Part shown: positions 224 through 33,048 of the stretch, piece by piece
How the letters are laid out: each line of letters starts with the position of its first letter
How positions within the stretch are numbered: position 1 is the stretch's first letter
Assembly (NCBI GenBank): GCA_965213575.1
Contig: CBDBZN010000037.1
Span: 67,835 to 131,834, forward strand
Reading direction: 5' to 3'
Source of the DNA: Chitinophagales bacterium
Lineage (GTDB): Bacteria > Bacteroidota > Bacteroidia > Chitinophagales > JAUHXS01
DNA: 64,000 nucleotides
Notes under the pieces: generated by a model
The model's database searches: none
What the model saw: the letters and a program-made list of their open reading frames with translations, nothing else
Told to the model about the DNA's origin: nothing
Translations under genes and position numbers: made by a program

Positions 224-231
224 TACTTTTG
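224..231 (+). promoter_or_regulatory. Bacteroidota -7 promoter box TActTTTG upstream of the fibre gene
   Basis: Exact match to the TAnnTTTG consensus, 36 nt upstream of the ATG at 268. It overlaps the TTG (229) that starts the ORF-track frame, which argues against that start. Confidence 0.5.
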
Positions 232-267: not shown

Positions 268-3200
268 ATGTACAACATTTTACAAATTGCATTTATAGCG
301 AGTTTCACTTTTATTGGTTCAGCCGTTTTTGCTCAAGGTAACACTTGGAAGTTATCAGGCAATAATAATGTAAACGCTAACAGTTTTATTGGAAGTGAAA
401 ATAACGCCCCGCTAATATTTAAAACTAATAATAATGAAGTGATGAGATTGACTGAAAATGGAGAGGTCAATTTTATGCCGGGTACTAATATCAACTTATC
501 AGGAAATGCTAATATTGATAGTATTTACACTAGTTACATTAATGCCACTTCACTATTTGCTGCATATATAGATATACAACAAGCGGATATATATGACCTA
601 TCTGCTGTTATCTTAACTTCTAGAAGACATACAGCCGATTCTTTATTAGCCGGATATTTCTCAGCAAATACACTAACAACACCTACCGCTACTATTGAAA
701 CACTAATTGCATTGAGCATTGTAAGTGAGTCAGTCATTACTGATACTTTAATAGTAGAGGAGGGTGAAATTGATCATTTGAATGCTTCGCAAATTATAAC
801 TGATGAGTTGGTAGGAAATAATTTACAGATTACTACCTTAAACAGTAATACTGCATCAATTAGTAAATTAAATGCAGATAGTATAGATGCAGTTTTCATA
901 CAAAGTAATGATCTGATTAGTGAAAAAGCGAATATTAATAGGTTAAATAGTGACAGCATCTATACAATGGCAATCAATAATACTGGAACAATTAGCACTC
1001 AGACAATAATTGCTAATTATACTGGATCAAATATTGTTCAAGCAGACACTTTAGAAAGTGTTTATGGAAATATTGATGATTTACATAATCAAAACATTAC
1101 TACCGAAACATTGATAGCAAATTCTTCAATGATACAAACGCTTACCACAGACTCACTTACTGCTATACATATTAATACCACTCAATTTGATGGCGAAACC
1201 GCTCAAATCAATTCTATTAATACCAATCAACTAGATGCTGAAAGAATAAATGCAATTGATATAGCAGTAGATAGTGTAATCAGTGCTAATCTGAATACAC
1301 AACAATTGAATGCTGAAAACGGTGAGGTTCAACACTTAGAGGTAGATAGTTTAGTTACTAATACTATAACAAATACTGGTGATATTAATACTACAACTGT
1401 AAATGCGAATAATTTGATTGCTCAATCATCAATTTCAAATAGTCTTTTATCTGATAGTGCTCATATTGAGTTCTTAGATGTGGAGAATTTTAACAGCACT
1501 TCCCTATTTGGTCAAAATGCTAACTTTCAATATATACATACAGATAGCTCAATTGCTACTACCGTAATTACAGGAGTACTTAAGGCAGATACGATTAGTG
1601 CAAACACATTAAGTGCTGCAAATGGAGATATAAATAATTTGAATGCAGATAGCATTCATACGCTATATACATCTAGTGATTATATCAATAGTGCTTCGTT
1701 GCGTGATATTAATAATGCACTAATACAAACTTCTGCCGATGGAAATTTACAGCGATTTGAGTTTTCAGGTGATAGCACACAAGTTTTACGGGGAGACGGT
1801 ACTTTTGGAGCAGATAATAATCATTGGTTTACTTCGGGTGATGTTCTATTTAATAATAATACCGGTAATGTAGGCATTGGTACTTCCAATCCTATTGAAA
1901 AGCTACATGTAGCCGGTAATATTAAGTTTGATGGCCAGTTAAAGAACAGTATTTTTCAAACTAACCCCACAGATAGTACGGTAGAGATTAATGGAGATGT
2001 GAATATTACTAACAACCTAACAACTAATACTTTCACTACCGATAAAATACAAGTCAATGAACAGTTTAAGATTGGCAACTCTATTGTATTAGATGCTACT
2101 ACTTCTTCTACGGGAGCTGCCAATAGACTATTTACCAGTAATACTGCTCCTACCGAATTATTTATTCAATCAGAGTCAGGGCTCAGTCACCATACTATTA
2201 TTAATGCCCATAACGATGGCAACGTAGGAATCGGCTTAACCAATCCTTCTGAAAAATTACATCTAGCAGGTAACTTTAGAAATACAGGTACTCTTAGAAC
2301 GGGTAGTCTAATCTTTAACGCAACCGGAAGTGAAAATACTATTATCAAAACCGGAACAGAACATATGTATATTTTAAATGGCGATAATGAGAATAATGAA
2401 TTAAAAATAGGGCTAGGGACAGACCATCCTGAAAAAGCATTACATATTAGGACCTACCACCGAGTCAATAATGCGGTAACTCATTATTCTCATGAAGGTA
2501 TCAGAATGGAAAGCCACTACGTACCGGATCTTATGACTATAGGTGAAAGAACCAGTACAACTTGGGATATAGAACCCGAAGTGGCTCAAATGCCTTTTTT
2601 GTCTTTTGGATTACCGGATGAACCTAAAATGGTGATTAGAGAAAATGGAAGTGTAGGCATTGGAAACACAATTACCGGAGAAGGGTTTAGCTTAGATGAT
2701 CAAATGATTGTATTAAATGACAAAAAGGTGGGTTTAAGACTAGTGGATGAAGATCAAACTGCTACGGATCACTACGGCTTATTGGTTGATATTAATGAGA
2801 ATGAAAATACTAAAGCCATAGTAGTAAGAGAAGATGATGGCCATCAAGGAGAACGCTTTACCGTATATGGTAATGGGGCTGTTGAAACAAGGGAGGGGAT
2901 TTTAGCGTATGAAAATATTATTACCAAAGAGTCTATATATGCAGACGGACTTAGAGTGCCTGCTGATACAGATGAAGATGTTAAGTTTATTATTAAGGAA
3001 GATGGTACTGTTGGGATTGGAACTAATACTCCTCAATCATTACTTTCAGTAAACGGAGAAATCACTTGCAAAGGTATCGAGGTAACAGCCAACGGTTGGC
3101 CTGATTATGTATTCTATAAAGACTATAATCTTCTACCGCTTGACAGCGTTAAAAATTATATTAACCAGAATGGTCACTTACCGGATGTTCCTTCGGAAAA

Positions 3201-3339
3201 AACTATTGAAAAGAACGGTATCAACTTGGGTGAAATGGATGCTATTTTGTTACGAAAAATAGAAGAACTGACGCTTTATATGATAGAATTAAAAAAAGAA
3301 AATGCTGAGTTGAAAAGAGCAGTATATAATATTAGATAA
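268..3339 (+). CDS. Large secreted fibre/adhesin-like protein with phage-tail-fibre-like architecture
   Basis: Frame open 229..3339. The ATG at 268 gives a clean signal peptide, MYNILQIAFIASFTFIGSAVFAQG. About 400 aa of degenerate N/T/S/I/D-rich repeats follow. Then come repeated G-N/T-VGIG-x-x-x-P-x-x-KLH-x-x-GN motifs (NVGIGTSNPIEKLHVAGN, NVGIGLTNPSEKLHLAGN, TVGIGTNTPQSLLSVNGE). The C-terminal module is WPDYVF...GHLPDVPS...LGEM...IEELTLYMIE. Confidence 0.8.
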   Translation: MYNILQIAFIASFTFIGSAVFAQGNTWKLSGNNNVNANSFIGSENNAPLIFKTNNNEVMRLTENGEVNFMPGTNINLSGNANIDSIYTSYINATSLFAAYIDIQQADIYDLSAVILTSRRHTADSLLAGYFSANTLTTPTATIETLIALSIVSESVITDTLIVEEGEIDHLNASQIITDELVGNNLQITTLNSNTASISKLNADSIDAVFIQSNDLISEKANINRLNSDSIYTMAINNTGTISTQTIIANYTGSNIVQADTLESVYGNIDDLHNQNITTETLIANSSMIQTLTTDSLTAIHINTTQFDGETAQINSINTNQLDAERINAIDIAVDSVISANLNTQQLNAENGEVQHLEVDSLVTNTITNTGDINTTTVNANNLIAQSSISNSLLSDSAHIEFLDVENFNSTSLFGQNANFQYIHTDSSIATTVITGVLKADTISANTLSAANGDINNLNADSIHTLYTSSDYINSASLRDINNALIQTSADGNLQRFEFSGDSTQVLRGDGTFGADNNHWFTSGDVLFNNNTGNVGIGTSNPIEKLHVAGNIKFDGQLKNSIFQTNPTDSTVEINGDVNITNNLTTNTFTTDKIQVNEQFKIGNSIVLDATTSSTGAANRLFTSNTAPTELFIQSESGLSHHTIINAHNDGNVGIGLTNPSEKLHLAGNFRNTGTLRTGSLIFNATGSENTIIKTGTEHMYILNGDNENNELKIGLGTDHPEKALHIRTYHRVNNAVTHYSHEGIRMESHYVPDLMTIGERTSTTWDIEPEVAQMPFLSFGLPDEPKMVIRENGSVGIGNTITGEGFSLDDQMIVLNDKKVGLRLVDEDQTATDHYGLLVDINENENTKAIVVREDDGHQGERFTVYGNGAVETREGILAYENIITKESIYADGLRVPADTDEDVKFIIKEDGTVGIGTNTPQSLLSVNGEITCKGIEVTANGWPDYVFYKDYNLLPLDSVKNYINQNGHLPDVPSEKTIEKNGINLGEMDAILLRKIEELTLYMIELKKENAELKRAVYNIR

Positions 3340-3989
3340 TGATCTATAGAATAGTATTATTGATATTTATTTTGTCCACACCCACAGTTGCTAGTATAAA
3401 AAGTGGGTATTTGGGGCTACATGTTACAAATCCTTTCGTTGGATATTATCCACCTGGTAATACAATTATTATTGGTGTGGAAGGAGGAGGAGTTTTTAAT
3501 ATCAAATCTTTCCATTTTAAAACCCAACTGCGATATACTTATTTTTATCATGATATTTATAATAAACATTTATACACACACGAGTTAGGTCAAGGAAAGC
3601 CTTTTGGTAGTCATGTTCTAACTAACCAATATCATATCATAGATTGGGAAGGAGCAATAGTTTTAAAGAGATGGTATGTTGGGAAATCAAGATTCGATTG
3701 GGATGGAATTATAAGTGTTTCTAAAAACTTATTAAATAATCAGACTATCAAAAGATATGTATACCCTGATAGCACTCCTATAATAGAAAATAAACTCATT
3801 CTTAATTCTTCAATTGTATTTGGAATAGGTACTAGTTTGCAATTCAATTTAAACACTAATACCTTTTTTTTACCTTATTTTAAAACAGAAATTTTACTGT
3901 TTCCTGTTGAAACGGGTGGCTATATTGGAGGTAATTGGCCATATGGTAGAATAATAATTAGTTTAGGAATATTGTTGAATAAAAACTAA
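3339..3989 (+). CDS. Small signal-peptide protein, predicted outer-membrane beta-barrel (module 1 partner)
   Basis: 216 aa with a hydrophobic N-terminus and alternating aromatic/glycine-rich strand-like segments. The start overlaps the upstream stop (TAATG), and the stop lies 3 nt before the next ATG. Confidence 0.6.
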   Translation: MIYRIVLLIFILSTPTVASIKSGYLGLHVTNPFVGYYPPGNTIIIGVEGGGVFNIKSFHFKTQLRYTYFYHDIYNKHLYTHELGQGKPFGSHVLTNQYHIIDWEGAIVLKRWYVGKSRFDWDGIISVSKNLLNNQTIKRYVYPDSTPIIENKLILNSSIVFGIGTSLQFNLNTNTFFLPYFKTEILLFPVETGGYIGGNWPYGRIIISLGILLNKN

Positions 3990-3992
3990 AAT

Positions 3993-5600
3993 ATGCACAA
4001 GTTAGCTGCTTTCATAGTACTTATTATATACGTAACAATAGGGTTTTCTCAAGAAAATCTAGTCCCTAATTTTAGTTTTGAAAGGGAAAATGGGTGTCCG
4101 ATTGGTGCTAGTATATCAGGACAATATGTAAATGAGGTTAAAGAGAATTGTTTAGATTGGGATAGTCCAATTCCGAGTGCTGACTATTTTAATAAATGTA
4201 ATAATTTTCCGTCCGGAAACGGAGAAGTAGGAGTTGCTGGAATATTGGGATTTCAAAATAATTTTTTTGGAAGACAAAGAGCATATAATGGTAATACCTC
4301 TCGAAAAGCTTATGCTGGCATTTATGGGGTTCATTTTGGTCCCCTTGGATATGAATATCTTCAAGTAAAATTAAAAGAACCACTAATTCAAAATTTTAGA
4401 TATCGAATTGCTTTTCGTATCAGCTTAGCTGACAAATCTCAATTTTCATTGGCTGGATTAGGGGCTTTGTTAACAGAGTCACCACCATCACCTATTTTAA
4501 ATTCTTTGCAAGGCAATCCGCAGGTAGTTTACAATGATTTTGTAGATCATACTAAGAAATGGACAATTATAGAGGGAACGTTTATAGCGGGAGGAGGAGA
4601 AGAATGGTTAACGATCGGTACTTTTAGAAGTGGTGCTAATGTATCTTATCAGCATAAGGAAATTGATTTGGAAAACATAATCCCTGGTGCTTATTATTAT
4701 ATTGATGATGTTAAGGTTCATCTTTATCCAAATCCTTGCCAATGCTCAAATTTCTATTTACAACGAAAAACTTTTAAGGATGGAGAGAGTCATGTAATTC
4801 ATGCTGAATCGTCTTTAATTGTTGGTAGCAATGTAGGGAAACAATATACTTCTAGTGGGAATGTTATTGTAACGATGGGAAGCAATTTGACTTTAAAATC
4901 TGGAGAAGATATATATTTGGATGAAGGATTTAAGGTGGAAGAAGGGGCGAGATTTAAAGCTGAGATTTCCCACTGCCAACCTAAATCAGGACCAATAACT
5001 TTAGGATTTGTTCCTAATGCATTTACTCCAAATGGAGATGGTCAACATGATTTGTTTAGAGTGAGAGTAGAGAATGCTAACTTTGGGGGTGCAGAAGTCT
5101 ACAATAGTTCTAGGGAGTTAGTGTATAAAAATTCTTTTATTCCTGTTGAGGGAGATTCAATATTTATTGCATGGGATGGAAAACAAAATGGGAATGTATT
5201 AAGTCCAGGCGTTTATGACATACTCGTTTCAGCATATAACTGCACACATACTATAGAGAATCAATTATATAATGTTACTATGATTATTAATACTAGCAAT
5301 AAACAAGAATCCAAACTATTACAACATATGTCGATTGACCAACCTTTGTTTCTAGTTTATCCTTCTCCAACCGATGGAGTTATTGCTATAGTACTTAAAA
5401 GCAACATGTCAGCGAATAATACTCGTATTGAAATTTTAGATTTACAAGGTAGAGTAATAGATAACTTTATATCTGAATTTGAAGAAAATCAACAATCGGT
5501 TAACTATACTTTTAAAGATGCTCCGAGTGGTATATACTTTATTCATCTCACAACTTCCGAGGGTAAGCATTACGTAGAAAAAGTATTTTTAGAAAGGTAG
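3993..5600 (+). CDS. T9SS-secreted protein (module 1 cargo) with an NLVPNFSFE..CP N-domain, an internal gliding-motility (type B-like) CTD and a terminal type A CTD
   Basis: Signal peptide, then NLVPNFSFERENGCP...YYYIDDVKV (jelly-roll/CBM-like signature). A segment resembles the Bacteroidota 3-coathanger stack (GSNLTLKSGEDIYLDEGFKVEEGARFKAEISHC). PNAFTPNGDGQHD...WDGKQNG...GVYDILV is the type B-like CTD. VYPSPTDG...ILDLQGRVI...GIYFIHLTT...KVFLER is the type A CTD. Confidence 0.85.
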   Translation: MHKLAAFIVLIIYVTIGFSQENLVPNFSFERENGCPIGASISGQYVNEVKENCLDWDSPIPSADYFNKCNNFPSGNGEVGVAGILGFQNNFFGRQRAYNGNTSRKAYAGIYGVHFGPLGYEYLQVKLKEPLIQNFRYRIAFRISLADKSQFSLAGLGALLTESPPSPILNSLQGNPQVVYNDFVDHTKKWTIIEGTFIAGGGEEWLTIGTFRSGANVSYQHKEIDLENIIPGAYYYIDDVKVHLYPNPCQCSNFYLQRKTFKDGESHVIHAESSLIVGSNVGKQYTSSGNVIVTMGSNLTLKSGEDIYLDEGFKVEEGARFKAEISHCQPKSGPITLGFVPNAFTPNGDGQHDLFRVRVENANFGGAEVYNSSRELVYKNSFIPVEGDSIFIAWDGKQNGNVLSPGVYDILVSAYNCTHTIENQLYNVTMIINTSNKQESKLLQHMSIDQPLFLVYPSPTDGVIAIVLKSNMSANNTRIEILDLQGRVIDNFISEFEENQQSVNYTFKDAPSGIYFIHLTTSEGKHYVEKVFLER

Positions 5601-5659
5601 CTATGGAAATAGTTATTGAACTTGATCCAGATAAGGGTATTATTAATGATTTTGTAAAA

Positions 5660-5688
5660 CCCTGACAAAGTTTAAAACTTTGTCAGGG
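5660..5688 (+). terminator. Perfect 29-nt palindrome/hairpin (14-bp arms) downstream of the module 1 cargo gene
   Basis: ccctgacaaagttt-a-aaactttgtcaggg, read directly. It lies 60 nt after the stop at 5600. No clean T-tract follows, so the terminator role is tentative. A degraded copy sits at about 8243..8273. Confidence 0.4.
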
Positions 5689-5692
5689 TTAA

Positions 5693-5866
5693 ATGGCGAA
5701 TAAACACTTACCGGGTATCTCATCAGCTAAGGAAATTGAAACTAATAATAACAGTTATGACCTCGGTGAAATGGTAGAGAAACTATTAATTAAAATAGAG
5801 GAATTAACTTTATACACAATTGAGCAAGAGGAGAAGATTAGGGCGTTGGAGGGGTTGGTGAAATAG
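5693..5866 (+). CDS. 57-aa orphan ORF: stand-alone copy of the fibre C-terminal module (coiled-coil-like). May be a gene remnant or a small protein.
   Basis: Absent from the ORF track because it is under 60 aa. Hand translation: [57 protein letters not shown]. It aligns to [39 protein letters not shown] at the end of the 268..3339 protein and to 8278..8445. Confidence 0.45.
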
Positions 5867-5874
5867 CAAGCCAT

Positions 5875-6576
5875 ATGAAAACAAATATTGTAAAAGTTTA
5901 TTTATTACTTGCAATGTGCTTTAGTACTGTTAATGCTTTTTGTCAAAATAATCTTTCAGCAGAATTATATAGTGGATTAGGTTTTTCCTATAAGTTTTTA
6001 AATATAGAAGAATCAGGAGGAAATTCTTTTTATAATGATACAAAATCACCTTTACTGTCTTATGCTTTGGGAGGAAGAGCAAATATTTACTTTTCAAATA
6101 ATTTTTCTTTTTTAATAGATATAGGTATAAAAAAATATGGTGATAAAAGTATTTCTATGTATTCTGGTGACAAAAATTCTCTTCAGGCTGGGCAGATATA
6201 CAGAAGTATTAATAAGTCTTATAGGAATACAATTGTATGTATGTTAGGTATAGAAAGAAATTTTCTTGAAAAACATACTCTCTCTTTATCAGGGGGCGTA
6301 GGTCATTTTTTTTCTAGTAAACTATATACAACAATAGCATATAAGGAAAAGGCATCAGAAACATTTACTACTAATTTAGAAATACTTAGTCATAAATATT
6401 ATACTTTCTTCCCTTTATTTGAGGTAAGATATGGTTATAAGGTATTTGATGGTTCTAAATTTAAAATTTACACTTTATTATCACATGAACATACATTTAA
6501 TACATTTAAAAAAAATATTGATAGTCTCAAAATTTATTATTCTATTACAAGCATAAGGATAGCTATTCGAAAATAA
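5875..6576 (+). CDS. Small signal-peptide protein, predicted outer-membrane beta-barrel (module 2 partner)
   Basis: 233 aa. Signal peptide MKTNIVKVYLLLAMCFSTVNAFCQ, then an alternating G/Y/F/S strand-like pattern. The stop is 12 nt before the next ATG. Confidence 0.6.
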   Translation: MKTNIVKVYLLLAMCFSTVNAFCQNNLSAELYSGLGFSYKFLNIEESGGNSFYNDTKSPLLSYALGGRANIYFSNNFSFLIDIGIKKYGDKSISMYSGDKNSLQAGQIYRSINKSYRNTIVCMLGIERNFLEKHTLSLSGGVGHFFSSKLYTTIAYKEKASETFTTNLEILSHKYYTFFPLFEVRYGYKVFDGSKFKIYTLLSHEHTFNTFKKNIDSLKIYYSITSIRIAIRK

Positions 6577-6588
6577 AAACAAGCCTTT

Positions 6589-8190
6589 ATGAAATTTATA
6601 ATCATTATCTCTACTAACTTATTTTTCTTACAAATGAGTTTTTGTCAAATAAACTTGATAATAAATCCCGGCTTTGAAGATATAAAAAGCTGTCCAAATG
6701 AACCTCAGGCCATTGATCCAGATTTATTTCCTTCTTGGATAGATAACTGGTTTCAATACAAGGGAAGTTCTGATTTATACAGATATGATCCATCAGGTAA
6801 TTGTATCAATACTCCTTTTATGGCGAATTTCAATAACCCATATCAAGGAAAAGGCTATGCCGGTATAAAAATAGGAGGACATGATTTTTTCGCTGAAATT
6901 GGAGAAATGCTAACAGGTAGTTTATCTTCTCCATTAATTGCTAATCAAGAATATTATTTCGAGTTTTATGCACATTCACAGAAAGGAACTGGAGTTCTTC
7001 CTAATCAATATGCAAATAATGCAGAAATTAATTTATTTTCTGCCTATTTCACTATAGAACGACCAGTAGATGTACCTGACAATTATAATTCTGTTTTTTC
7101 AAATGTAGATAACGGACCAGTTGCTAGTAATCAAGGTTGGGTAAAGGTTTATGGTTCCTTTATTGCAAAGGGTGGTGAGTTATTTTTCACAGTGGGGAAA
7201 TCTTTATTGACTTCATACTTTGGTGACTTAGTTGAATATTCTCAAGGATATTATTACTTAGATGCATTTAAGCTTTATCCAACTGGAAATATAAGACCTA
7301 ATTTGTGTTGTCCGGATACAGTTTGTATAGAAGATGTAGGTACTGGTAACAATGATTTTTTACAAAAAAAGGTTGAAAGTACTTCGCTTATAAAAGCTGG
7401 TTTTGATGTTGGAATTCCAAATAAAGAAGGTGATGTAATTGTAAAGAATGGACAAAAGGTTGAATTTAGAGCTGGAGAGGAAATACTTCTAGTTAACGGG
7501 TTTTCTACAGAACTAGGTTCTGAATTTGTTGCCACAATAGAAAGTTGTAACCCTTTTATGGATTTCCCACAACCCGAAATATTATTTGTTCCAAATGGAG
7601 TGGGAGAATGTTCTAAGTTTTGTATTCAAGGTGAAGATATTTTTAGCTATAAATTAGATATGGCAACAATACAGCCGACTCAACCACAATATCAATATTA
7701 CACAGAAGGAATAGTCCGGGACTATTCATCTGCACGCATTTGTATAGATGTACCTACATACTCCCTTCGGTTTGTATGGGCATACTATTTAAAGGTCTTT
7801 AATTGTGAAGGTGATTCAATTTCAAAATTGGGAAACTTGACTGTAGAAGGCTGTACTCAAAAAACTGATTATAATGAAGAGAAGTCAGAAAGCCTAAGAG
7901 AAGACACCCTTAATAACGACCCCTCTTTAACAAACCTGTTTTTTAAAGTTTATCCTTCTCCAACCGATGGTGCTATAAATATTAAATATAGTTTTAAAGA
8001 AAATAAGGAAGGTGCAATTATTGAAATATTAGATTTTCAAGGTAAAATAATAGATAAATTCATTCCTTTATTTGGAGAAAACCAACAATTGGTAAACTAT
8101 ACGTTTAAAGATGCTCCAAGTGGTATATACTTTGTCCACCTTACTACTAATAGTGATCATTTCGTAGAGAAAGTATTCTTGGAAAGATAG
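6589..8190 (+). CDS. T9SS-secreted protein (module 2 cargo), paralog of 3993..5600
   Basis: Same layout as the module 1 cargo: NLIINPGFEDIKSCP...YYYLDAFKL, the coathanger-like GQKVEFRAGEEILLVNGFSTELGSEFVATIESC, a degenerate type B-like region, and the type A CTD VYPSPTDGAINI...ILDFQGKII...GIYFVHLTT...KVFLER. The last roughly 260 nt and 26 nt past the stop are clearly homologous at DNA level to 5340..5626. Confidence 0.85.
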   Translation: MKFIIIISTNLFFLQMSFCQINLIINPGFEDIKSCPNEPQAIDPDLFPSWIDNWFQYKGSSDLYRYDPSGNCINTPFMANFNNPYQGKGYAGIKIGGHDFFAEIGEMLTGSLSSPLIANQEYYFEFYAHSQKGTGVLPNQYANNAEINLFSAYFTIERPVDVPDNYNSVFSNVDNGPVASNQGWVKVYGSFIAKGGELFFTVGKSLLTSYFGDLVEYSQGYYYLDAFKLYPTGNIRPNLCCPDTVCIEDVGTGNNDFLQKKVESTSLIKAGFDVGIPNKEGDVIVKNGQKVEFRAGEEILLVNGFSTELGSEFVATIESCNPFMDFPQPEILFVPNGVGECSKFCIQGEDIFSYKLDMATIQPTQPQYQYYTEGIVRDYSSARICIDVPTYSLRFVWAYYLKVFNCEGDSISKLGNLTVEGCTQKTDYNEEKSESLREDTLNNDPSLTNLFFKVYPSPTDGAINIKYSFKENKEGAIIEILDFQGKIIDKFIPLFGENQQLVNYTFKDAPSGIYFVHLTTNSDHFVEKVFLER

Positions 8191-8205
8191 CTATGGAAAT
8201 AGTTA

Positions 8206-8445
8206 TTGAACTTGATGAAGGCAGCACTAATAATTTCGAAAAACTCTGCCAAAGTTTTAAATTTTGTCAGGGTTAAAGTGGCGAATAAACACTTACCGGG
8301 TATCTCATCAGCTAAGGAAATTGCAACTAACAATAGTTATGACCTCGGCGAAATGGTAGAGAAACTGTTGATTAAAGTAGAAGAATTAACTTTATACACA
8401 ATTGAACAAGAGGAGAAGATTAGGGAGTTGGAAGGATTTAGTTAA
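8206..8445 (+). CDS. Second orphan copy of the fibre C-terminal module (conserved part starts at GTG 8278)
   Basis: ...[55 protein letters not shown]. The upstream part (VLNFVRVKVANK) still resembles LDSVKNYINQNG of the full-length fibre protein, which points to origin from a truncated gene. Confidence 0.45.
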   Translation: MNLMKAALIISKNSAKVLNFVRVKVANKHLPGISSAKEIATNNSYDLGEMVEKLLIKVEELTLYTIEQEEKIRELEGFS

Positions 8446-8470
8446 GCGATAAAGATTAATATAAACTTGC

Positions 8471-9052
8471 ATGAGAAATGCTATGATGAAATTATTTTTT
8501 AAAATATTATTTATTTCATTTTGTTTTTGCGGCTTTGCTCAAAATGATTCCGTAACTAATAAATGGTCAGTGGGAGTAAATTATACAAACATTTTCCCAA
8601 TTTTTAACACCCCTGATTATGGAATTGCACATCAGATTAACTTATTAATTAGATATAAGCGATTATATATATTACCTGGATTAGATGTCCAAGGATTCGG
8701 TATACTAGGGAAAAAAATTGAAATCTGCTATGAAGTATTTAGGCAAAAAAAAGAAAAATTTTCTATTCAAACATATCATGGATTTCGTGGTTTTAATTAT
8801 AAAATTGGAGCCGGGCCTCCACTAGGTGTCCTGCCCACACGTAGAGATAATTTTGGGCCATATTATTATTTTAATAAGATTAGAATACTTGAGTTAGGAG
8901 GAGTATTTCAACTTAGGGTTAGCGACTTACTTTATTTTAACTCTTCATTTGCGCTAGCACGAATTCATCAATTGAGTGATCCATTTGATAAAGAATATAA
9001 ATTTTGGAGTTTTTATACAAAAGCAGGGTTTAGTTTTATTATCCTTAAATAA
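8471..9052 (+). CDS. Small signal-peptide protein, predicted outer-membrane beta-barrel (module 3a partner)
   Basis: 193 aa. Contains KLFFKILFISFCFCGFAQ. Paralog of 9185..9778 (WSVGVNYTNIFPIFNTPDYGIAHQINLL vs WSLGVNYTNIISIFKSPHYGYVHQFNTLL, and YKIGAGPPLGVLPT vs YRIGAGPPIGILPT). Confidence 0.6.
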   Translation: MRNAMMKLFFKILFISFCFCGFAQNDSVTNKWSVGVNYTNIFPIFNTPDYGIAHQINLLIRYKRLYILPGLDVQGFGILGKKIEICYEVFRQKKEKFSIQTYHGFRGFNYKIGAGPPLGVLPTRRDNFGPYYYFNKIRILELGGVFQLRVSDLLYFNSSFALARIHQLSDPFDKEYKFWSFYTKAGFSFIILK

Positions 9053-9059
9053 GAAGATT

Positions 9060-9173
9060 ATGAATAAATATTTTAGAGGAATGTGGTTATTTACCATTAT
9101 TATATTTTCTAATATTATTGCACAAAATTTAGTCCTAAATGGAGGATTTGAAAACCGGTATTGTTGCCCCTGA
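9060..9173 (+). pseudogene. Truncated 5' fragment (37 codons) of a module-cargo gene
   Basis: MNKYFRGMWLFTIIIFSNIIAQNLVLNGGFENRYCCP* is a signal peptide plus the family N-terminal motif (NLVPNFSFE..CP). It stops 12 nt before the next barrel gene. Confidence 0.6.
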
Positions 9174-9184
9174 AGGTTTTAACC

Positions 9185-9778
9185 ATGAAAAGTATAAAAA
9201 CAATACCTGTTATATTATTATTGGGACTATTGTTAAAGAATTGCTATGCTCAAGATGATACAATTAAAACTAAAAATTGGTCTTTAGGTGTGAACTATAC
9301 AAATATTATATCCATATTTAAAAGCCCTCATTATGGATATGTACACCAATTTAACACGCTACTAAAATGTAATAAGGTATCTTTAGTTTTAGGCTTAGAA
9401 TATCAGCAACAGGGAATTTTTGGAAAACATTTGGGAATAAGATATCAGATATATTCGACAGAAATGAAAAAATACAAAATAGAAATTTATAATACTGTCA
9501 GAAATTTTAATTATAGAATTGGAGCAGGTCCACCTATAGGTATTTTGCCTACTAAGAACGATCATTACGATCCATATGTATACGAAGTACAAACATGGGT
9601 AATTGATGTTGGTGGTATCTATTCATATAGAATATTAAAAAGTTTATTTATAGAGCTTTCTGTAGGAGTTACATATTCTAATAAGTACTTAACCTCTGAT
9701 ATTTACAATATTAAAACTTACACAAAACAGTATTATTTAAGCTCCAAAATGGGATTAACTTATAGTTTTAAATTATGA
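9185..9778 (+). CDS. Small signal-peptide protein, predicted outer-membrane beta-barrel (module 3b partner)
   Basis: The ORF-track frame begins at 9161. The ATG at 9185 gives MKSIKTIPVILLLGLLLKNCYAQ. Ends ...MGLTYSFKL. The stop overlaps the next start (ATGA). Confidence 0.6.
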   Translation: MKSIKTIPVILLLGLLLKNCYAQDDTIKTKNWSLGVNYTNIISIFKSPHYGYVHQFNTLLKCNKVSLVLGLEYQQQGIFGKHLGIRYQIYSTEMKKYKIEIYNTVRNFNYRIGAGPPIGILPTKNDHYDPYVYEVQTWVIDVGGIYSYRILKSLFIELSVGVTYSNKYLTSDIYNIKTYTKQYYLSSKMGLTYSFKL

Positions 9779-10041
9779 TTAAAAATTTTACATTATTATT
9801 TATTTTGATTTTTAGTAATGGATTTACTGAAAATTTGGTGCCGAATTCTAGCTTTGAAGAAAGATTTTGTTGTCCAATAGGTTACAATTCTTCATCAGAT
9901 ACAATAGACTGTTTAAATAATTGGCAAATTCCAAAAAGCAAACTTATTAATTGTGCAGGACCTGGCACATCTGATATTTTAACATATGCAATTGAGCAGG
10001 AAGAGAAGATTAGGGAGTTGGAACGACAATTTAGCAAATAA
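9775..10041 (+). pseudogene. Chimeric remnant: cargo-gene 5' end fused in frame to the last ~20 codons of the orphan fibre C-terminal module
   Basis: MIKNFTLLFILIFSNGFTENLVPNSSFEERFCCPIG... is the family N-terminus. It joins at about 9979 to [20 protein letters not shown], whose DNA aligns to ttaactttatacacaattgaacaagaggagaagattagggagttggaa at 8390..8436. Confidence 0.6.
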
Positions 10042-10062
10042 CCTATTGGCTTAAAACTATAT

Positions 10063-10605
10063 ATGAAAAAGTATATGCTGTTATTTTATTTTCTAATATT
10101 ATTTAGTTTCGGATTTGCACAGGAACGACTACATAAAGTGGTTTATGCTGAAGCATTAGGTTTTACATTTCTTTATTCACTAAATTTCGAATTCGATTTT
10201 AAAGATTCTTCAATGACCAATTTTGTATCCTATAGAACAGGATTATCATATTCCAACTTTAATTCTGATAAAATTGGTGTTTTAACTTATGGGGTGGCAT
10301 TACAATATAACATTTATTTAAAAAGACGTCTTTTTTTAGTAGCTTCAATATTACCAGTTTTACTATTAAACACTAGTAAAAATTTTATTCCTATTAATGG
10401 AAATAGTAACACAAATTCCTACTATCCAAGAGGATATATTGACACAGAGGTATCCTTGAAGTGGTGTCCAACAGAAGAGCAGAGAGTTTTTATAAAAGCG
10501 TGTTTGGGTTTCCAAATTTTTGATTATAGCTACAACTCTGAATTTAAAATGATTGAGTCTAACTTTCAACCATATTTAGGAATTGGAATAGGATATGGTT
10601 TTTAA
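10063..10605 (+). CDS. Small outer-membrane beta-barrel-like protein (family 2)
   Basis: 180 aa. Signal peptide ...FSFGFAQ. C-terminus YLGIGIGYGF ends in a terminal aromatic, typical of OM barrels. 61 nt at the 5' end are identical to 11352..11412. Confidence 0.6.
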   Translation: MKKYMLLFYFLILFSFGFAQERLHKVVYAEALGFTFLYSLNFEFDFKDSSMTNFVSYRTGLSYSNFNSDKIGVLTYGVALQYNIYLKRRLFLVASILPVLLLNTSKNFIPINGNSNTNSYYPRGYIDTEVSLKWCPTEEQRVFIKACLGFQIFDYSYNSEFKMIESNFQPYLGIGIGYGF

Positions 10606-10738
10606 AAATAGAATATGAGAATTATAATTATCCTTTTAGAATCTTTAAAGCTTTTTGCCAAGTAAACTTAGTTAACATATATTGAAAGTTTACAAAAAGT
10701 TTCTATAATAACATCTGAAAGAATTGAAAATATATATT

Positions 10739-11236
10739 ATGTGTTTTAAAATAAATTATTACTTAACAATATTAATTTTTCAGTTTTTATTTGCAATCTC
10801 TTTGCAAGCTCAAGATACTCCTGCTTTTAAGTATCTAATTGGTGGGCAGGGCGAGTTTGAATATATAAATGCTAATAAAGTTGACATTAGATACTTATCG
10901 TTATCGATAGCACCTCAATTTGGATATTTTATTACCAAAAGTATTGTTGGTGGAGCGAGTATAAATTATAGCTACCTAAAAGGAGATGATGTTGAGTCTT
11001 CTAATTTCGGTACTAAGTTTTTTTCAAGATACTATGTGCATTCGGTTAACATATTTGCTGAGGCAAACTACGGAATAGATTTTATGCCGGTAAACCACAG
11101 TATTGGTTTAGGATTGGGCTATATAATATATTTGACAAATAATTTAACAATTGAGCCTATGTTAAATTATAATATAGATAAATATATTCATAAAGTTAAT
11201 TTTTCCATAGGCGTGCAAGGGTATATAATTAGATGA
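10739..11236 (+). CDS. Small outer-membrane beta-barrel-like protein (family 3)
   Basis: The ORF-track frame starts at TTG 10724. The ATG at 10739 gives MCFKINYYLTILIFQFLFAISLQAQD. Alternating strand pattern, ending ...FSIGVQGYIIR. Confidence 0.55.
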   Translation: MCFKINYYLTILIFQFLFAISLQAQDTPAFKYLIGGQGEFEYINANKVDIRYLSLSIAPQFGYFITKSIVGGASINYSYLKGDDVESSNFGTKFFSRYYVHSVNIFAEANYGIDFMPVNHSIGLGLGYIIYLTNNLTIEPMLNYNIDKYIHKVNFSIGVQGYIIR

Positions 11237-11292
11237 TTTAGTATTCTATCAAGGCGTGCGTAGTTTTATTTAAAAATAAATAATTGCCAACT

Positions 11293-11847
11293 ATGAAAAT
11301 TCTTTTACAGACATATGTCATTATTCTATTATTTAATTTTCTAATATTATCTAGTTTCGGATTTGCACAGGAACGACTACATAAAGTGGTTTATGCTGAA
11401 GCATTAGGTTTTGCATCTCCATTTTCAGTAAATTTTGAATTCGATTTTGCTGATTCAGCCATACATAATTTTTTTTCTTATCGTTTAGGAATCAGCTATC
11501 CATATATAGTATTTAAAAACAGAAACTATGTAAATATTGGAGCAAGTATCGGATACAATTGGATGTTATCTCAACAGGCTTTCATTGAAACTTCCATAAT
11601 AAAGGAAGTTAAATTTTGTATTGGTAAAGAAAGTATTCCCTCTTCAGTTATGAGGGAATCTTTCTACCCGAGAGGAAGTTCCATCTTAAGTCTTGCTTTA
11701 AAATCTTCTTTAAAGAAACATCCTCGAATATATATAAAACCCAGTGTCATAGTAAGAATATTAAGTTTTGGATTTAATTCAGATTATAGGTGGTTTGATT
11801 CTGAAATCACACCTTACGTAGGTATAGCAGGAGGGATAAAGTTTTAA
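11293..11847 (+). CDS. Small outer-membrane beta-barrel-like protein (family 2 paralog)
   Basis: The ATG at 11293 gives MKILLQTYVIILLFNFLILSSFGFAQERLHKVVYAEALGF. Ends YVGIAGGIKF. The TTG at 11284 is the ORF-track start. Confidence 0.6.
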   Translation: MKILLQTYVIILLFNFLILSSFGFAQERLHKVVYAEALGFASPFSVNFEFDFADSAIHNFFSYRLGISYPYIVFKNRNYVNIGASIGYNWMLSQQAFIETSIIKEVKFCIGKESIPSSVMRESFYPRGSSILSLALKSSLKKHPRIYIKPSVIVRILSFGFNSDYRWFDSEITPYVGIAGGIKF

Positions 11848-26470: not shown

Positions 26471-27394
26471 TCAAAATATTTTTGGACTACTTGCTTTTAA
26501 TCTGGTTTGAAATTGATAAGAAACGCTTATTTCGTGAGATCCGGACGAAAATGAGCTTATTTCATTAATTGAATGATCGTAAAAATAATAAATATGTAGC
26601 TTATAATTCCATTTATAACCAAATAATCCTACCATTGCAATTCCCGGCCGATAAGTAGTTCCCACTGAGAAGATATCATTAATATTAAGCACGGTAGTAA
26701 AATCAGATTGAATTGGGCTGTTCTTTACATATTTCGTTAAAGATGATAATTGTAGCTCAAAATTTTTATTGATATTAATCATTTTACCAATATTGAATAT
26801 GAAATTATTATTTGCAGGTTTAAAGGATGGTTGAATTAAATTACCTAGCCCGCCGCTGAATCTATAATATAATAAATCCGGCATTGATAATCCTATATAA
26901 AATTTCTGAGTATTGTAAAAAACTCCTAAGCCGAAGTTAGGATACAAATAGTTTGAGTTAGTCGTAAATTCAGCATCTCCTTGTTCATCAAGTAATAAAT
27001 CATTCCATCTTGAATTCTGTAAAACAGCTTTAGCCTTCAGTCCTAATGATACTTTACCTTTTGGTAATATTATTCGATAAGCATAATTGGCTGATAACGC
27101 TGTTCTTTGAGTAGCGCCTATTTCGTCATTAACTAGATTAATCCCTAAGGCCACGTTTTCCTTTTTGAGGGGTGTGTTAAGTAATATTGCTCGGGTAGTT
27201 GGTGCACCGGGCATGTCTACCCATTGGGTCCTATATATAATATTTCCGGTTAAAGCATTTGTTTCTCCTATTTGAGCCGGGTTATATAGAGCGCCATTTA
27301 TGAAGTAGCTGCTTATTAAGGGAATATGCTCCTGGCCAATTACCAACTGTATGGTCAATAAAAAGATGCATAGACTATATAGTAATTTCATCAT
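26471..27394 (-). CDS. PorP/SprF-family type IX secretion system membrane protein
   Basis: 307 aa. YNPAQIG...YRTQWVDMPGAPTT...GINLVNDEIGATQRTALSANYAYRI matches the PorP/SprF signature. It starts 2 nt after the stop of the type-B-CTD adhesin. Confidence 0.85.
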   Translation of the reverse strand: MMKLLYSLCIFLLTIQLVIGQEHIPLISSYFINGALYNPAQIGETNALTGNIIYRTQWVDMPGAPTTRAILLNTPLKKENVALGINLVNDEIGATQRTALSANYAYRIILPKGKVSLGLKAKAVLQNSRWNDLLLDEQGDAEFTTNSNYLYPNFGLGVFYNTQKFYIGLSMPDLLYYRFSGGLGNLIQPSFKPANNNFIFNIGKMININKNFELQLSSLTKYVKNSPIQSDFTTVLNINDIFSVGTTYRPGIAMVGLFGYKWNYKLHIYYFYDHSINEISSFSSGSHEISVSYQFQTRLKASSPKIF

Positions 27395-27396
27395 AA

Positions 27397-30300
27397 TTAA
27401 TATTTTACAACTACATATCCATTATATATCAGATCCAATTCAGAAACTTTCAAAATATAATGATAAGTATCTGGGGCAATTTTTTTACCATTCATATTAG
27501 TACCATCCCATGTGCCTAAATATTGATCAGTTTCATAAACTAGGTGCCCCCATCTATTAAAGATCTGCAAATTAGCACTGGGAACATTTTCTAAACCCCT
27601 AACTACGAAATTATCATTTATTTGATCAAAATTAGGAGAAAATCCTTCAGGAATATAAAGATCTTCAACTAGTACCTCTACATCATCAAAAATAACTTCA
27701 CAAGGCCCATTTTCTATTATCCATCTAAAAATATTTACCCCTACTGACAAATTGATAACTTGTAAATTTGGTTCATATATGTTAAGCAGCTCTGCAGAAC
27801 CCTCAATAATTTCCCAATGGCCTTCAAAAGGATTTTCCGGAGTATTGGCAATAACATCTGTTTCAAATAAATAATACAAAGTTTTATCCATGCCGGCATC
27901 TACTTCATTGGGCTGCTCATGAAAAGATATAGTTACACTATCACTATCTGCACAAAAGACATTATTTTCTGTCCATACAAAATTGTATGTGGTGTATTGG
28001 TTAGCAATTACATTATAATCTGTAGAATCATAATTAACTTCGTCCGGGATTTGCCAAGTGCTCATACCTACACTTGGAAATGGTTCTAGCTGAGTGGCTA
28101 ATCCGCATATATCTTTGTCTTCTCCTGCATTCGCCACAGGATTTTCAAGTACCGTAACTCGAAAAGAATCAGTTAAATTTTTTGATATACATCCATTTGC
28201 GTCCTCTAATTCTTTGATTGTGTATATTTTACTTTGTGCTGGTATAACAGTAAAACTATGGGTATCAGCTTCTATCTCCTCAAAATTAAAAATATTATCT
28301 CCGGTTGCATACTGTATATTAAAAGGAGCGAGTCCTGATATATTATTAGATGATAATAAGATACTGTCCCCTTGGCATATTGAATCATTACCTTCAAAAT
28401 CTGCATTGGGATTGTCATTAACGGATATGTATAATTCTGTGCTAATAGATGTATCGCATACGCTGGATGTAATTTTTCTTCGCAAATGAATAGGATTGGA
28501 AATAACAGGAAGATTATAAAATTGATCTCGACTGCTTCCCAAAGCTGATTCAAAATTTATGCCATCGCTACTCTTTTCCCATTGATACGAATAAGAATTG
28601 TCACCCCCACTGCCGGTAGAGCCGTCATATAAAGTGTTACTAGTTCCTTTACATAATTCATCAGGGCCTTCAATAGTATTATTTGTTATAGGTAAATAGA
28701 CAACTATAACCGCCGTGTCACTGGTGTTTTGGGGGCAATTGATTGATCTAACTATTCTCCTGAAATAAGTCGTCTCATCGATACTATTAGTTATATAATG
28801 CTGTAGTGAATCTGCTCCGGGAGCTGCTGTAAAATTGGTAGGGGTTATGCCAAATTCCCAAGAGTAAATATAATTGCTATCTCCACCCATTGGAAGAGAG
28901 CCAGATAAGACTAGCGCTGAGTCTTCGCTACACAATGTATCATTTCCTGAAATTGTATTATCAGAAATTGTTGCAGTAGTTATCAATTGCACGGTATTAC
29001 TATAAGAAGTTAGACAATTTCCAGATGTAGCCACTCTTCTATAATATTTTGTAATAAGAGAGTCTGTCATTGTTATGGGGGGAAGATAATTTTGATCTGT
29101 ATTATTAAAAGTTATATCGGCAAAACCTGTATCGTTTGAATCTATTTCCCACATCCAAACAATTTGTCCATTTCCTCCCGAAGGCTTATTGCCTAAGAAT
29201 GTATCCGGCATAATACCGGAACAAATAGTTTGATCGGCGGAAATGATATTATTAGTAAGAGATGGATAAACATTAATAGTTATTAGATTACTAATTGATG
29301 AATCACAAGTGGAGGAGTAAACTATTCTTCTGAACGAAGTTGTATCGGATAAAGTACCCGGGTGATAATCTTCTTGGTCATTAGATCCGGTAGCAGAATA
29401 AAAAGTTATTCCATCTGCACTGGCTTGCCATAAATAAGTAAAAGCATTATCTCCGCCGGCGGGACTACTACCGCGCAGGGTATCAGGACTTAAATCTGAA
29501 CAGATAGTTTGATCAGCCGAAATGGTATTACCGGTGATAGGCGGTTGCACAGAAATTTGCACAGTATCGCTAAAAGAGGTATCACAAGTAGAAGAAGTAA
29601 CAATTCTTCGGTAATAAGTGGTATCTGTTAAGATACCGGGGACATAATCGGTATTGGTAGAAGTTCCAATTGCTGTAATATAATTAATGTTATCAAGGCT
29701 TTGTTGCCACAAGAAAGCATGACTTCCATCACCACCGGTAGGAGAGGTGCCCGTTAAAACCGACGGCGTATGTCCTGAGCAGATAGTTTGATCAGCCGAA
29801 ATGGTATTACCGGTGATAGGCGGTTGCACAGAAATTTGCACAGTATCGCTAAAAGAGGTATCACAAGTAGAAGAAGTAACAATTCTTCGGTAATAAGTGG
29901 TATCTGTTAAGATGTCGGGGGCATAATCGGAATTATTAGAAGTTCCAACTGCTGTACTATAATTAATGTTATCAAGGCTTTGTTGCCACAAGAAAGCATG
30001 ACTTCCATCACCACCTATTGGATCACTACCCGATAAGGCTGACGGCGTATGTCCTGAACAGATAGTTTGATCAGCCGAAATGGTATTACCGGTGATAGGC
30101 GGTTGCACAGAAATTTGCACAGTATCGCTAAAAGAGGTATCACAAGTAGAAGAAGTAACAATTCTTCGGTAATAAGTGGTATCTGTTAAGACGCCGGGGG
30201 CATAATCGGTATTGGTAGAAGTTCCAATTGCTGTAATATAATTAATGTTATCAAGGCTTTGTTGCCACAAGAAAGCATGACTTCCATCACCACCGGTAGG

Positions 30301-32619: not shown

Positions 32620-33048
32620 ATATTTATCATTCACATAAATCATACCAGCTACCTAAATAAGAGCTTTTAGATTACTAAGGATCAAAATCAGTTAGTAATA
32701 AACTTACTTATACGCTGATGCGACATTAATTGTTACATTTATAATTCATAAAAATTTCTTCTATATAAATATAGCTTATATTTATATCAGAAAAAAATAA
32801 AACACTAATGTCGTTGTTTACCTATTTACTAAGGCTACAGTTTTATATAGATGCAAACTACCTGATTTATACTATAAAAGAAAATTAACGACATTATATT
32901 TTCATTATAATATTATAAATAATTGCAAAAATTTATAATAAAATGATATATAATAAATTTTACTTAATTGGGTAAAATATACCTCTTAAGTATAAAAATA
33001 CCCAATAGTAGATGAATAGATGGTAGGAGATTAATTAATAACCTTTAA

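Follow-up and report, generated by a model that had tools for sequence, protein, structure and literature searches.

Phages encode tail-fibre assembly chaperones beside their fibre genes, amongst them T4 gp57A, a helical oligomer of roughly 79 amino acids (aa), and the Tfa-type proteins. In polymorphic toxin loci (cdiA-CT/cdiI and rhs), orphan C-terminal cassettes carry variable toxin tips together with immunity genes and keep a homology handle. The terminal place in Bdellovibrio mosaic adhesive trimer (MAT) fibres and phage fibres is often held by a Peptidase S74 domain, the catalytic Ser-Lys motif of which (SDxxxK) sits at the domain start (PMC10769870). Here we describe two short open reading frames (ORFs), 5693..5866 and 8278..8445, in a 64,000-nucleotide (nt) stretch of DNA from a Chitinophagales bacterium (contig CBDBZN010000037.1 of assembly GCA_965213575.1, positions 67,835 to 131,834 of the forward strand; hereafter the window). 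Each follows a gene for a cargo protein of the type IX secretion system (T9SS), and both are related to the C-terminus of a full-length fibre gene encoded upstream. These ORFs, referred to as orphans, are a free-standing truncated form of a widespread, undescribed fibre-end module and, judging from codon-level comparisons, are probably short protein-coding genes under purifying selection on their amino-acid sequence.

The likeness of the orphans to T4 gp57A and the Tfa-type proteins is by description only, in that they too are tiny, predicted to be helical, devoid of a signal peptide and placed in a fibre locus. Unlike the phage chaperones, they are derived from the terminus of the fibre itself. 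Phage fibres, moreover, fold within the cytoplasm, whereas the window fibre carries a signal peptide and is exported. As with polymorphic toxin cassettes, they are pieces of the 3' end of a gene, lined up behind a full-length gene of their family; unlike those cassettes, they represent the conserved end, retain no handle and have no partner immunity gene. The MAT fibres of Bdellovibrio bacteriovorus (8OND, 8OML, 8OL4 and 8ONC; PMC10769870) share a repeated beta-helix motif with the body of the window fibre, and the two also have in common a signal peptide and ends that vary. At the terminus, MAT fibres carry an S74 domain or a beta-sandwich tip where the window fibre has its helical module, and the likeness excludes the orphan region. 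A profile of the fibre C-terminal region matched the MAT structures through its GNVGIGT part (hmmsearch E 4e-10 for 8OND to 1e-3), and these structures were also the top Foldseek matches.

The genes that bear directly on the orphans are as follows:

5693..5866, + strand: orphan module 1, 57 aa, ATG start; 'type B' distal half of the fibre C-terminal module
8278..8445, + strand: orphan module 2, 55 aa from GTG 8278 (76 aa from the in-frame upstream ATG 8215; 79 aa from the in-frame upstream TTG 8206)
268..3339, + strand: full-length fibre gene, 1023 aa, with a signal peptide and repeated GNVGIGT..P..KL.V.G beta-helix motifs
about 3094-3336, + strand: 'type A' helical C-terminal module at the end of the 268..3339 fibre gene
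3993..5600, + strand: T9SS cargo gene 1, 535 aa (Por_Secre_tail E 1e-13, TIGR04183 E 6e-10)
6589..8190, + strand: T9SS cargo gene 2, 533 aa (Por_Secre_tail E 1e-10)

Both orphan ORFs were found as the original prediction had described them, and a codon alignment recovered exactly the eight synonymous differences that it had listed (AAT/AAC, GGT/GGC, CTA/CTG, TTA/TTG, GAG/GAA three times and GGG/GGA) along with a single in-frame codon indel. Its tally of five non-synonymous differences was close to the five to six found, which comprise E/A, I/V, A/E, L/F and V/S, a K/stop difference and ATG/GTG at the start. The placement of three of these in the last three codons required amendment, as that region holds two replacements plus the earlier stop of copy 2; these final three codons vary freely between the copies. 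The reported match of both orphans to the fibre C-terminus was located at 3169..3315 (tblastn E about 1e-8, 50-60% identity), and both also matched positions 85-135 of the module-family profile (hmmsearch E 4e-23 for copy 2 and 6.5e-23 for copy 1). The invariant residues L68, K94, E96, E97, T99 and L100 and the near-invariant H67 and P69 were kept in the orphans. The duplicated block exceeds the orphans themselves, extending from about 5426-5856 in the first unit and 8019-8438 in the second, and takes in the 3' end of the cargo sorting domain (aa 455-531 of cargo 1, type A, about nt 5355-5585) and the spacer between cargo gene and orphan. Cargo 2 is strongly diverged from cargo 1, its 3' end excepted.

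Related orphans were retrieved from other loci. A protein homologue search, which covers proteins no longer than about 1.75 times the query, identified one in locus L001 (GCA_030426955.1, 10001..10216, GTG start) directly after a Por_Secre_tail cargo gene, and a metagenome scan with a profile search identified two further orphans, in L085 (3965..4162) and L164 (1500..1712). In a search of the genome collection, identities were no higher than 57-68%. As had been anticipated, orphans follow T9SS cargo genes elsewhere, with Por_Secre_tail upstream in four loci representing at least three lineages; all true orphans sit in this single type of locus. Every orphan copy has a start codon, and all five orphans were predicted by public gene callers (P0001 for copy 1, P0002 for copy 2 from ATG 8215, P0003, P0280 and P0281). 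From H67 onwards, the family-invariant and near-invariant residues are kept with two exceptions, P72 (replaced by Ser in the orphans of the window and of L001) and G81; these two positions differ in full-length type B modules too. L085 and L164 share an identical junction, in which the orphan ATG overlaps the cargo stop codon (TAATG), and were therefore already orphans when they diverged. The gene order of L085 is that of the window, comprising a fibre, a 187-aa protein, cargo, the orphan, a 196-aa protein, a truncated cargo gene and a transposase-like ORF, the last of which lies at 5031-5576 beside the truncated cargo gene.

Three comparisons addressed the selection acting on these ORFs. Over codons 3-54, the window pair differs at 11 nt, of which 8 are synonymous and 3 non-synonymous, giving NG86 estimates of 0.025 non-synonymous (dN) and 0.32 synonymous (dS) substitutions per site. 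When 11 substitutions were simulated under neutrality, the probability of three or fewer replacements was 0.0001, 0.0006 and 0.002 for kappa values of 1, 2 and 4, respectively, and a kappa of about 4 was suggested by the spacer differences (a by-eye count on the alignment). The open frame is itself uninformative for this pair, given that 45-65% of simulations with 11 hits stay open. Between the window orphans and that of L001, first, second and third codon positions differ by 24-25%, 13-14% and 58-65%, the random expectation for third positions at this composition being about 71%; in the core the corresponding figures are 17%, 5% and 54%. Approximately 50 random substitutions, simulated for this comparison, keep the frame open in 2-5% of cases. 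At the protein level the window and L001 orphans are 76% identical, against 33% for the flanking fibre and 25-31% for the cargo. The third comparison, L085 with L164, revealed 14 nt differences, with 9 synonymous and 4 replacement codons (dN 0.029, dS 0.40, neutral P <= 3e-4). The adjoining cargo sorting domain has a dN of 0.27 in the window pair and 0.11 between L085 and L164, as opposed to 0.025-0.03 for the orphans, which are the most constrained part of the cargo-orphan block. With sequences added, the dN/dS tests favour the idea, put forward from the window pair, of constrained small genes rather than scars.

The similarity of the two window units climbs towards the orphan. Whereas dS is saturated in the cargo bodies, it falls to 0.7-1.3 in the sorting domain and 0.2-0.3 in the orphan, and the spacer between the last two is 85% identical; L085 and L164 display the same mosaic. 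This suggests that a 3' block of sorting domain plus orphan has been exchanged or converted between otherwise fast-diverging cargo genes. A gradient of the kind seen in the window block is typical of a conversion tract, and hence bears on the reading that the orphans are dead scars, their low dN reflecting either time spent within an intact fibre prior to recent independent truncations, or recurrent conversion by an intact type B fibre gene located elsewhere in the genome. We consider this unlikely. The orphans are not copies of the C-terminus of the 268..3339 fibre itself, as had been supposed, but belong to the distinct type B subtype of the module, which ends a full-length 631-aa fibre in L084 (49-1944) and, more loosely, the fibre of L001. 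The 3' end of the intact L084 fibre is 91% identical to the L085 orphan in nucleotides and 97% in amino acids, and both come from one metagenome, such that recent derivation or conversion is possible there. Nonetheless, L085 and L164 were orphaned before they diverged and still show 9 synonymous to 4 non-synonymous changes. The window and L001 orphans are mutually closest at 76% identity, compared with <= 72% to any full-length module seen, and they share an upstream 'VLNF' stretch; the L001 fibre is just 64% identical to the L001 orphan and hence no donor. The window spacer, moreover, took 15% mismatches plus indels, whilst the adjoining ORF took almost solely synonymous changes.

The junctions are of different kinds: that of the window contains a 93-nt spacer, whereas in L085 the stop and start codons overlap. 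Truncation may thus have occurred independently in the two, as the scar reading supposes, or have been remodelled afterwards. That reading also gains from a third orphan copy in the window, which is a genuine scar:

9775..10041, + strand: 88-aa fusion ORF in which the third orphan copy continues, in frame, a cargo N-terminus that is cut short (signal peptide plus NLVPNSSFE...)

This copy retains the last 21 codons only (9973..10041) and is 86% identical to copy 2 in nucleotides over 43 nt. Fibre genes of the module family are, furthermore, often found broken, and several modules that appeared to stand alone were rejected as orphans on inspection. P0006 equals the end of P0037; the L083 module is set apart by an in-frame TAA at 5983-5985, right after WPDYVF; those of L016, L006, L118 (about 646) and L163 (about 4640, in an A-run) result from frameshifts; and those of L165 and L166 look like remnants. 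Splits of this kind, just ahead of the module or inside it, are frequent and may reflect misassembly, pseudogenes or phase variation.

A further use for silent fibre ends would be as 3' cassettes, that is, recombination substrates that replace the C-terminus of the expressed fibre, as in polymorphic toxin loci. The fibres of L084 (49-1944) and L085 (123-2090) bring this to mind, since their 5' thirds are about 86% identical, their bodies and 3' ends differ, and the L084 end equals the L085 orphan. We nevertheless regard a cassette function as very unlikely. The orphan corresponds to the conserved fibre end and not to a variable tip, the profile search revealed no upstream homology handle in the orphans, and the 50-60% protein identity between orphan and window fibre end is too diverged for homologous exchange; selection for recombination, in addition, would not specifically spare replacement sites.

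The regions between cargo gene and orphan are organised as follows:

5601..5692, + strand: spacer 1, with a mini-ORF at 5603..5665, a hairpin at 5658..5690 and a TAA at 5690-5692 abutting the orphan ATG
8191..8277, + strand: spacer 2, with a mini-ORF at 8193..8276 ending 1 nt before GTG 8278 and a degraded hairpin at 8242..8274

The two spacers are 85% identical with 7 gap columns. The previously noted 1-nt indel (TTAAA-TGG in copy 1, TTAAAGTGG in copy 2) was confirmed. The palindrome described at 5660..5688 is real and slightly longer, at 5658..5690; it folds into a near-perfect 15-pair stem (-23.6 kcal/mol, z -4.4) that ends 3 nt before ATG 5693, its degraded counterpart in copy 2 having a folding energy of -15.7 kcal/mol. 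Decay of the sequence upstream of the orphans had also been claimed. Its support comes from a by-eye chain, running from copy 2 'VLNFVRVKVANKH' through the L001 orphan 'VLNFRISLEPLRYNKH' to the full-length 'DYKLMSLAELKAYIEQHKH', and the profile finds no module similarity upstream of 'ANKHLP' in any frame. Frameshift or readthrough fusion of cargo and orphan was considered and rejected, given that frames and spacers differ among loci and that stop codons intervene.

The hairpin region might itself be the functional element, acting as a terminator, processing or regulatory site to which the ORF is incidental. A strong hairpin before copy 1 and a weaker one before copy 2 are what would be expected of it, but the hairpin is absent from L001, L085 and L164, the latter two having no spacer at all. 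It has no U-tract, a search of Rfam over 5000-9000 returned no match, and the variable positions of the ORF are the synonymous ones, the opposite of nucleotide-level constraint; we find this explanation scarcely credible. Somewhat better placed, though still improbable, is the proposal that the frame is kept open for the sake of translation alone, for coupling of, or polarity protection for, the next gene, which in the window encodes a small barrel-like protein, the peptide being irrelevant. The distance from orphan stop to the next ATG is indeed tight, at 8 nt (5866 to 5875), 25 nt (8445 to 8471) and 7 nt (L085), the stop codon of the fibre overlaps the start of the first barrel-like gene, and both spacers contain chains of short ORFs with abutting stop and start codons. 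Coupling, however, predicts a free amino-acid sequence, whereas replacements are strongly avoided and nearly all family-invariant residues kept, and in L001 the orphan is followed 47 nt on by a cargo gene rather than a barrel-like gene.

The module from which the orphans derive has the consensus WPDYVF..Y.L..L.EVE..I..N.HLP.VPSA.EV...G..LGEM..., with KIEELTLY further along. A scan of 1.84 billion cluster representatives placed it in 35,707 clusters (50% identity), 31,820 of them at E <= 1e-10, and among Bacteroidota fibre-like proteins few C-terminal modules are commoner. Approximately 290 copies in 160 fetched loci were nearly always at the extreme C-terminus of a long ORF, in proteins of 120 to >1000 aa, with the module directly after GNVGIGT beta-helix repeats. 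Module genes often occur in tandem arrays of up to nine genes, and are rare in viral contigs (27 loci). The module had no sequence match in Pfam, NCBIfam, PHROG or PDB when the orphans, fibre and neighbours were searched, and no paper on it was found in the literature; across the family, the only Pfam matches were weak ones of the bZIP and SlyX types. Searches of the PDB with two profiles matched the beta-helix part alone, in Bdellovibrio fibres.

An AlphaFold2 model of the last 120 aa of the window fibre (predicted local distance difference test score, pLDDT, 93) has three short strands from a GNVGIGT repeat followed by helices at 55-65, 74-80 and 84-119. The orphans are without the WPDYVF motif and the first helix (L..L.EVE..I), the profile alignment beginning at 'ANKHLP', and are hence truncated. 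Orphan 1 was modelled as a short helix (12-17) and a long 33-residue helix (24-56) with a pLDDT of 87.6, block means across residues 21-57 being 86-98. A heptad-like spacing, V28-L31-I35-L38-T42-Q45-I49-L52, was discerned by eye only and would fit a putative coiled coil. The 6-kDa product has neither a signal peptide nor a T9SS sorting domain.

The S74 / intramolecular chaperone auto-processing (ICA) domain (PF13884; endosialidases, phage tail fibres, Bdellovibrio S74-type MAT fibres and MyRF) is the nearest described counterpart in position, ending as it does a trimeric beta-helical fibre after GNVGIGT-type repeats, and a further likeness lies in the helix-rich nature of the module and its long terminal helix. 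A weak whole-length fold match was obtained to the MyRF ICA domain 7DC3 (template modelling scores 0.47/0.40, E 0.67), and one member of the module family bears the UniRef name 'Peptidase S74 domain-containing'. A minority of modules read WSD[YF]VF.K, of which P0208 (WSDFVFK) fits SDxxxK exactly; in P0201 and P0187 the Lys comes one residue later, and P0170 (WSDFVFYDNY) has no Lys there. Going by this motif, WSD-type modules could mark self-cleaving relatives. PF13884 gave no match at E <= 1 for the fibre or the orphans, nor for any of 131 family members at E <= 10, whereas true S74 domains from the fetched loci do match it (control score 41 bits), and hhalign of the module against those domains gave a probability of 28%, over the last helix only. 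In place of the catalytic Ser of S74 the window fibre has Pro (WPDYVFYK), and the orphans are without the whole region. The module occupies the place of the S74 domain in fibres, its membership of S74 being weakly supported.

The whole is best explained, we think with moderate probability, by 3' ends of type B fibres having been kept as small genes with a role in fibre assembly. What the sequences themselves demonstrate is homology, gene order, a confident helical prediction and, in each of three independent comparisons, constraint on the codons. The simplest history is that of a repeated fibre / barrel-like / cargo unit, the second fibre of which lost its body; the full-length type B fibre of L084, ending as it does in the L085 orphan sequence, speaks for such an origin. 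A type B fibre gene would once have followed the T9SS cargo gene in such a unit; deletion of the fibre body would have left the distal half of the C-terminal module, namely the short helix and the helix of approximately 33 residues with the family-invariant HLP and K.EELTL residues. This remnant may then have gained a start, be it ATG 5693, GTG 8278 or ATG 8215, or, in L085 and L164, an ATG that shares bases with the stop codon of the cargo gene, and would have been kept thereafter by purifying selection on its amino-acid sequence. Transcription of the orphans would presumably start at the fibre promoter, as part of a single operon, and their translation would follow that of the cargo gene through coupling or re-initiation. 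The TAATG overlap in L085 and L164, the mini-ORF that stops just short of GTG 8278 and the TAA that abuts ATG 5693 are junctions that fit coupling. The product might pair in trans with like helices, as the terminal helix of the module would in cis, and would thus bind the C-terminal module of a full-length fibre, or the partner of that module, so as to assist or tune fibre assembly in the manner of a small tail-fibre assembly chaperone. Tentatively, the distal helix may be an autonomous unit, a free 6-kDa protein co-translated with the T9SS cargo and acting in trans on the assembly of the fibre, the barrel-like protein or the cargo.

Several observations weigh against retention as small genes with a role in fibre assembly. 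The hairpin 3 nt before ATG 5693 should hinder initiation there, and the start codon varies, being ATG in copy 1, GTG or an upstream ATG in copy 2 and GTG in L001. The five orphan sequences in all come from a single narrow group of loci, one further window copy (9973..10041) is clearly dead, and nearly all other 'stand-alone' modules proved to be contig-edge calls or genes split by a frameshift or nonsense mutation. Gene conversion could also have a donor, should the source genome hold an intact type B fibre at another site. Finally, the window fibre has a signal peptide but the orphan product does not, so that they would fail to meet once the fibre is exported, and the in-trans idea needs either a cytoplasmic encounter or another partner.

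Should the orphans be expressed, they would represent a gene remnant kept as a small protein, a conserved fibre end that outlives its fibre inside a secretion operon, and would provide a minimal fragment of 55-65 residues for studying a module carried by tens of thousands of Bacteroidota fibre-like proteins. If the in-trans proposal is also true, they would be a cellular equivalent of the phage tail-fibre chaperones that arose out of the fibre terminus itself, and would offer a handle on the function of a family of >35,000 clusters that has no database description. The scope is narrow, comprising five sequences from one group of loci, and ORFs of this sort are easily missed or dismissed in annotation.

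The orphans are embedded in the first approximately 12 kb of the window (31.5% G+C), which forms a single + strand gene string in a T9SS-bearing member of the Bacteroidota; PorP/SprF and CHU_C genes are present elsewhere in the window. The remaining features of this string that adjoin the fibre, cargo and orphan genes are:

224..231, + strand: Bacteroidetes-type -7 box (TAnnTTTG), TACTTTTG, found by regular-expression scan upstream of the fibre gene
3339..3989, + strand: 216-aa signal-peptide protein, putative small outer-membrane barrel, its start overlapping the fibre stop (TAATG)
5875..6576, + strand: 233-aa signal-peptide protein, putative barrel, beginning 8 nt past orphan 1
8471..9052, + strand: 193-aa signal-peptide protein, putative barrel, first of an array reaching about 11847

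The fibre encoded at 268..3339 matched the PHROG tail-fibre family phrog_9942 (E 8e-7). The protein encoded at 3339..3989 had no match in Pfam, NCBIfam or PHROG, and its identity as a barrel is a putative one drawn from its sequence pattern. The -7 box TACTTTTG is the sole strict one within 120 nt upstream of 14 + strand gene starts between 1 and about 12.1 kb. Only the fibre gene being preceded by such a box, the string is probably one operon, and on this reading of the sequence the fibre gene through to the orphans would probably be a single transcription unit; a single -7 box implies a very long operon or else non-canonical promoters. A sigma-70 promoter scan was uninformative for this phylum.

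Genes bearing the fibre module repeatedly adjoin Por_Secre_tail (T9SS type A) cargo genes, as observed in L083, L163, L001, L085 and the window, a recurrent adjacency that may point to fibres and T9SS substrates being functionally linked. The 8471-11847 region holds an array of seven small signal-peptide proteins, the size range being 165-233 aa when those at 3339 and 5875 are included. Their C-termini resemble beta strands and have F, L or K as the last residue; the proteins form at least two subfamilies and gave no family matches. Truncated cargo N-termini (8976..9173 and 9775..10041) are interspersed among the array genes, which shows the distal end of the locus to be in decay. Elsewhere in the window, the - strand at 27397-32643 encodes a protein of 1748 aa that has Ig_7 and, as its type B sorting domain, CHU_C; seven tandem 279-nt repeats, 90-99% identical to one another, occupy 29217-31190 within it. 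A PorP/SprF gene (26471-27394) follows the gene for this protein on the same strand.

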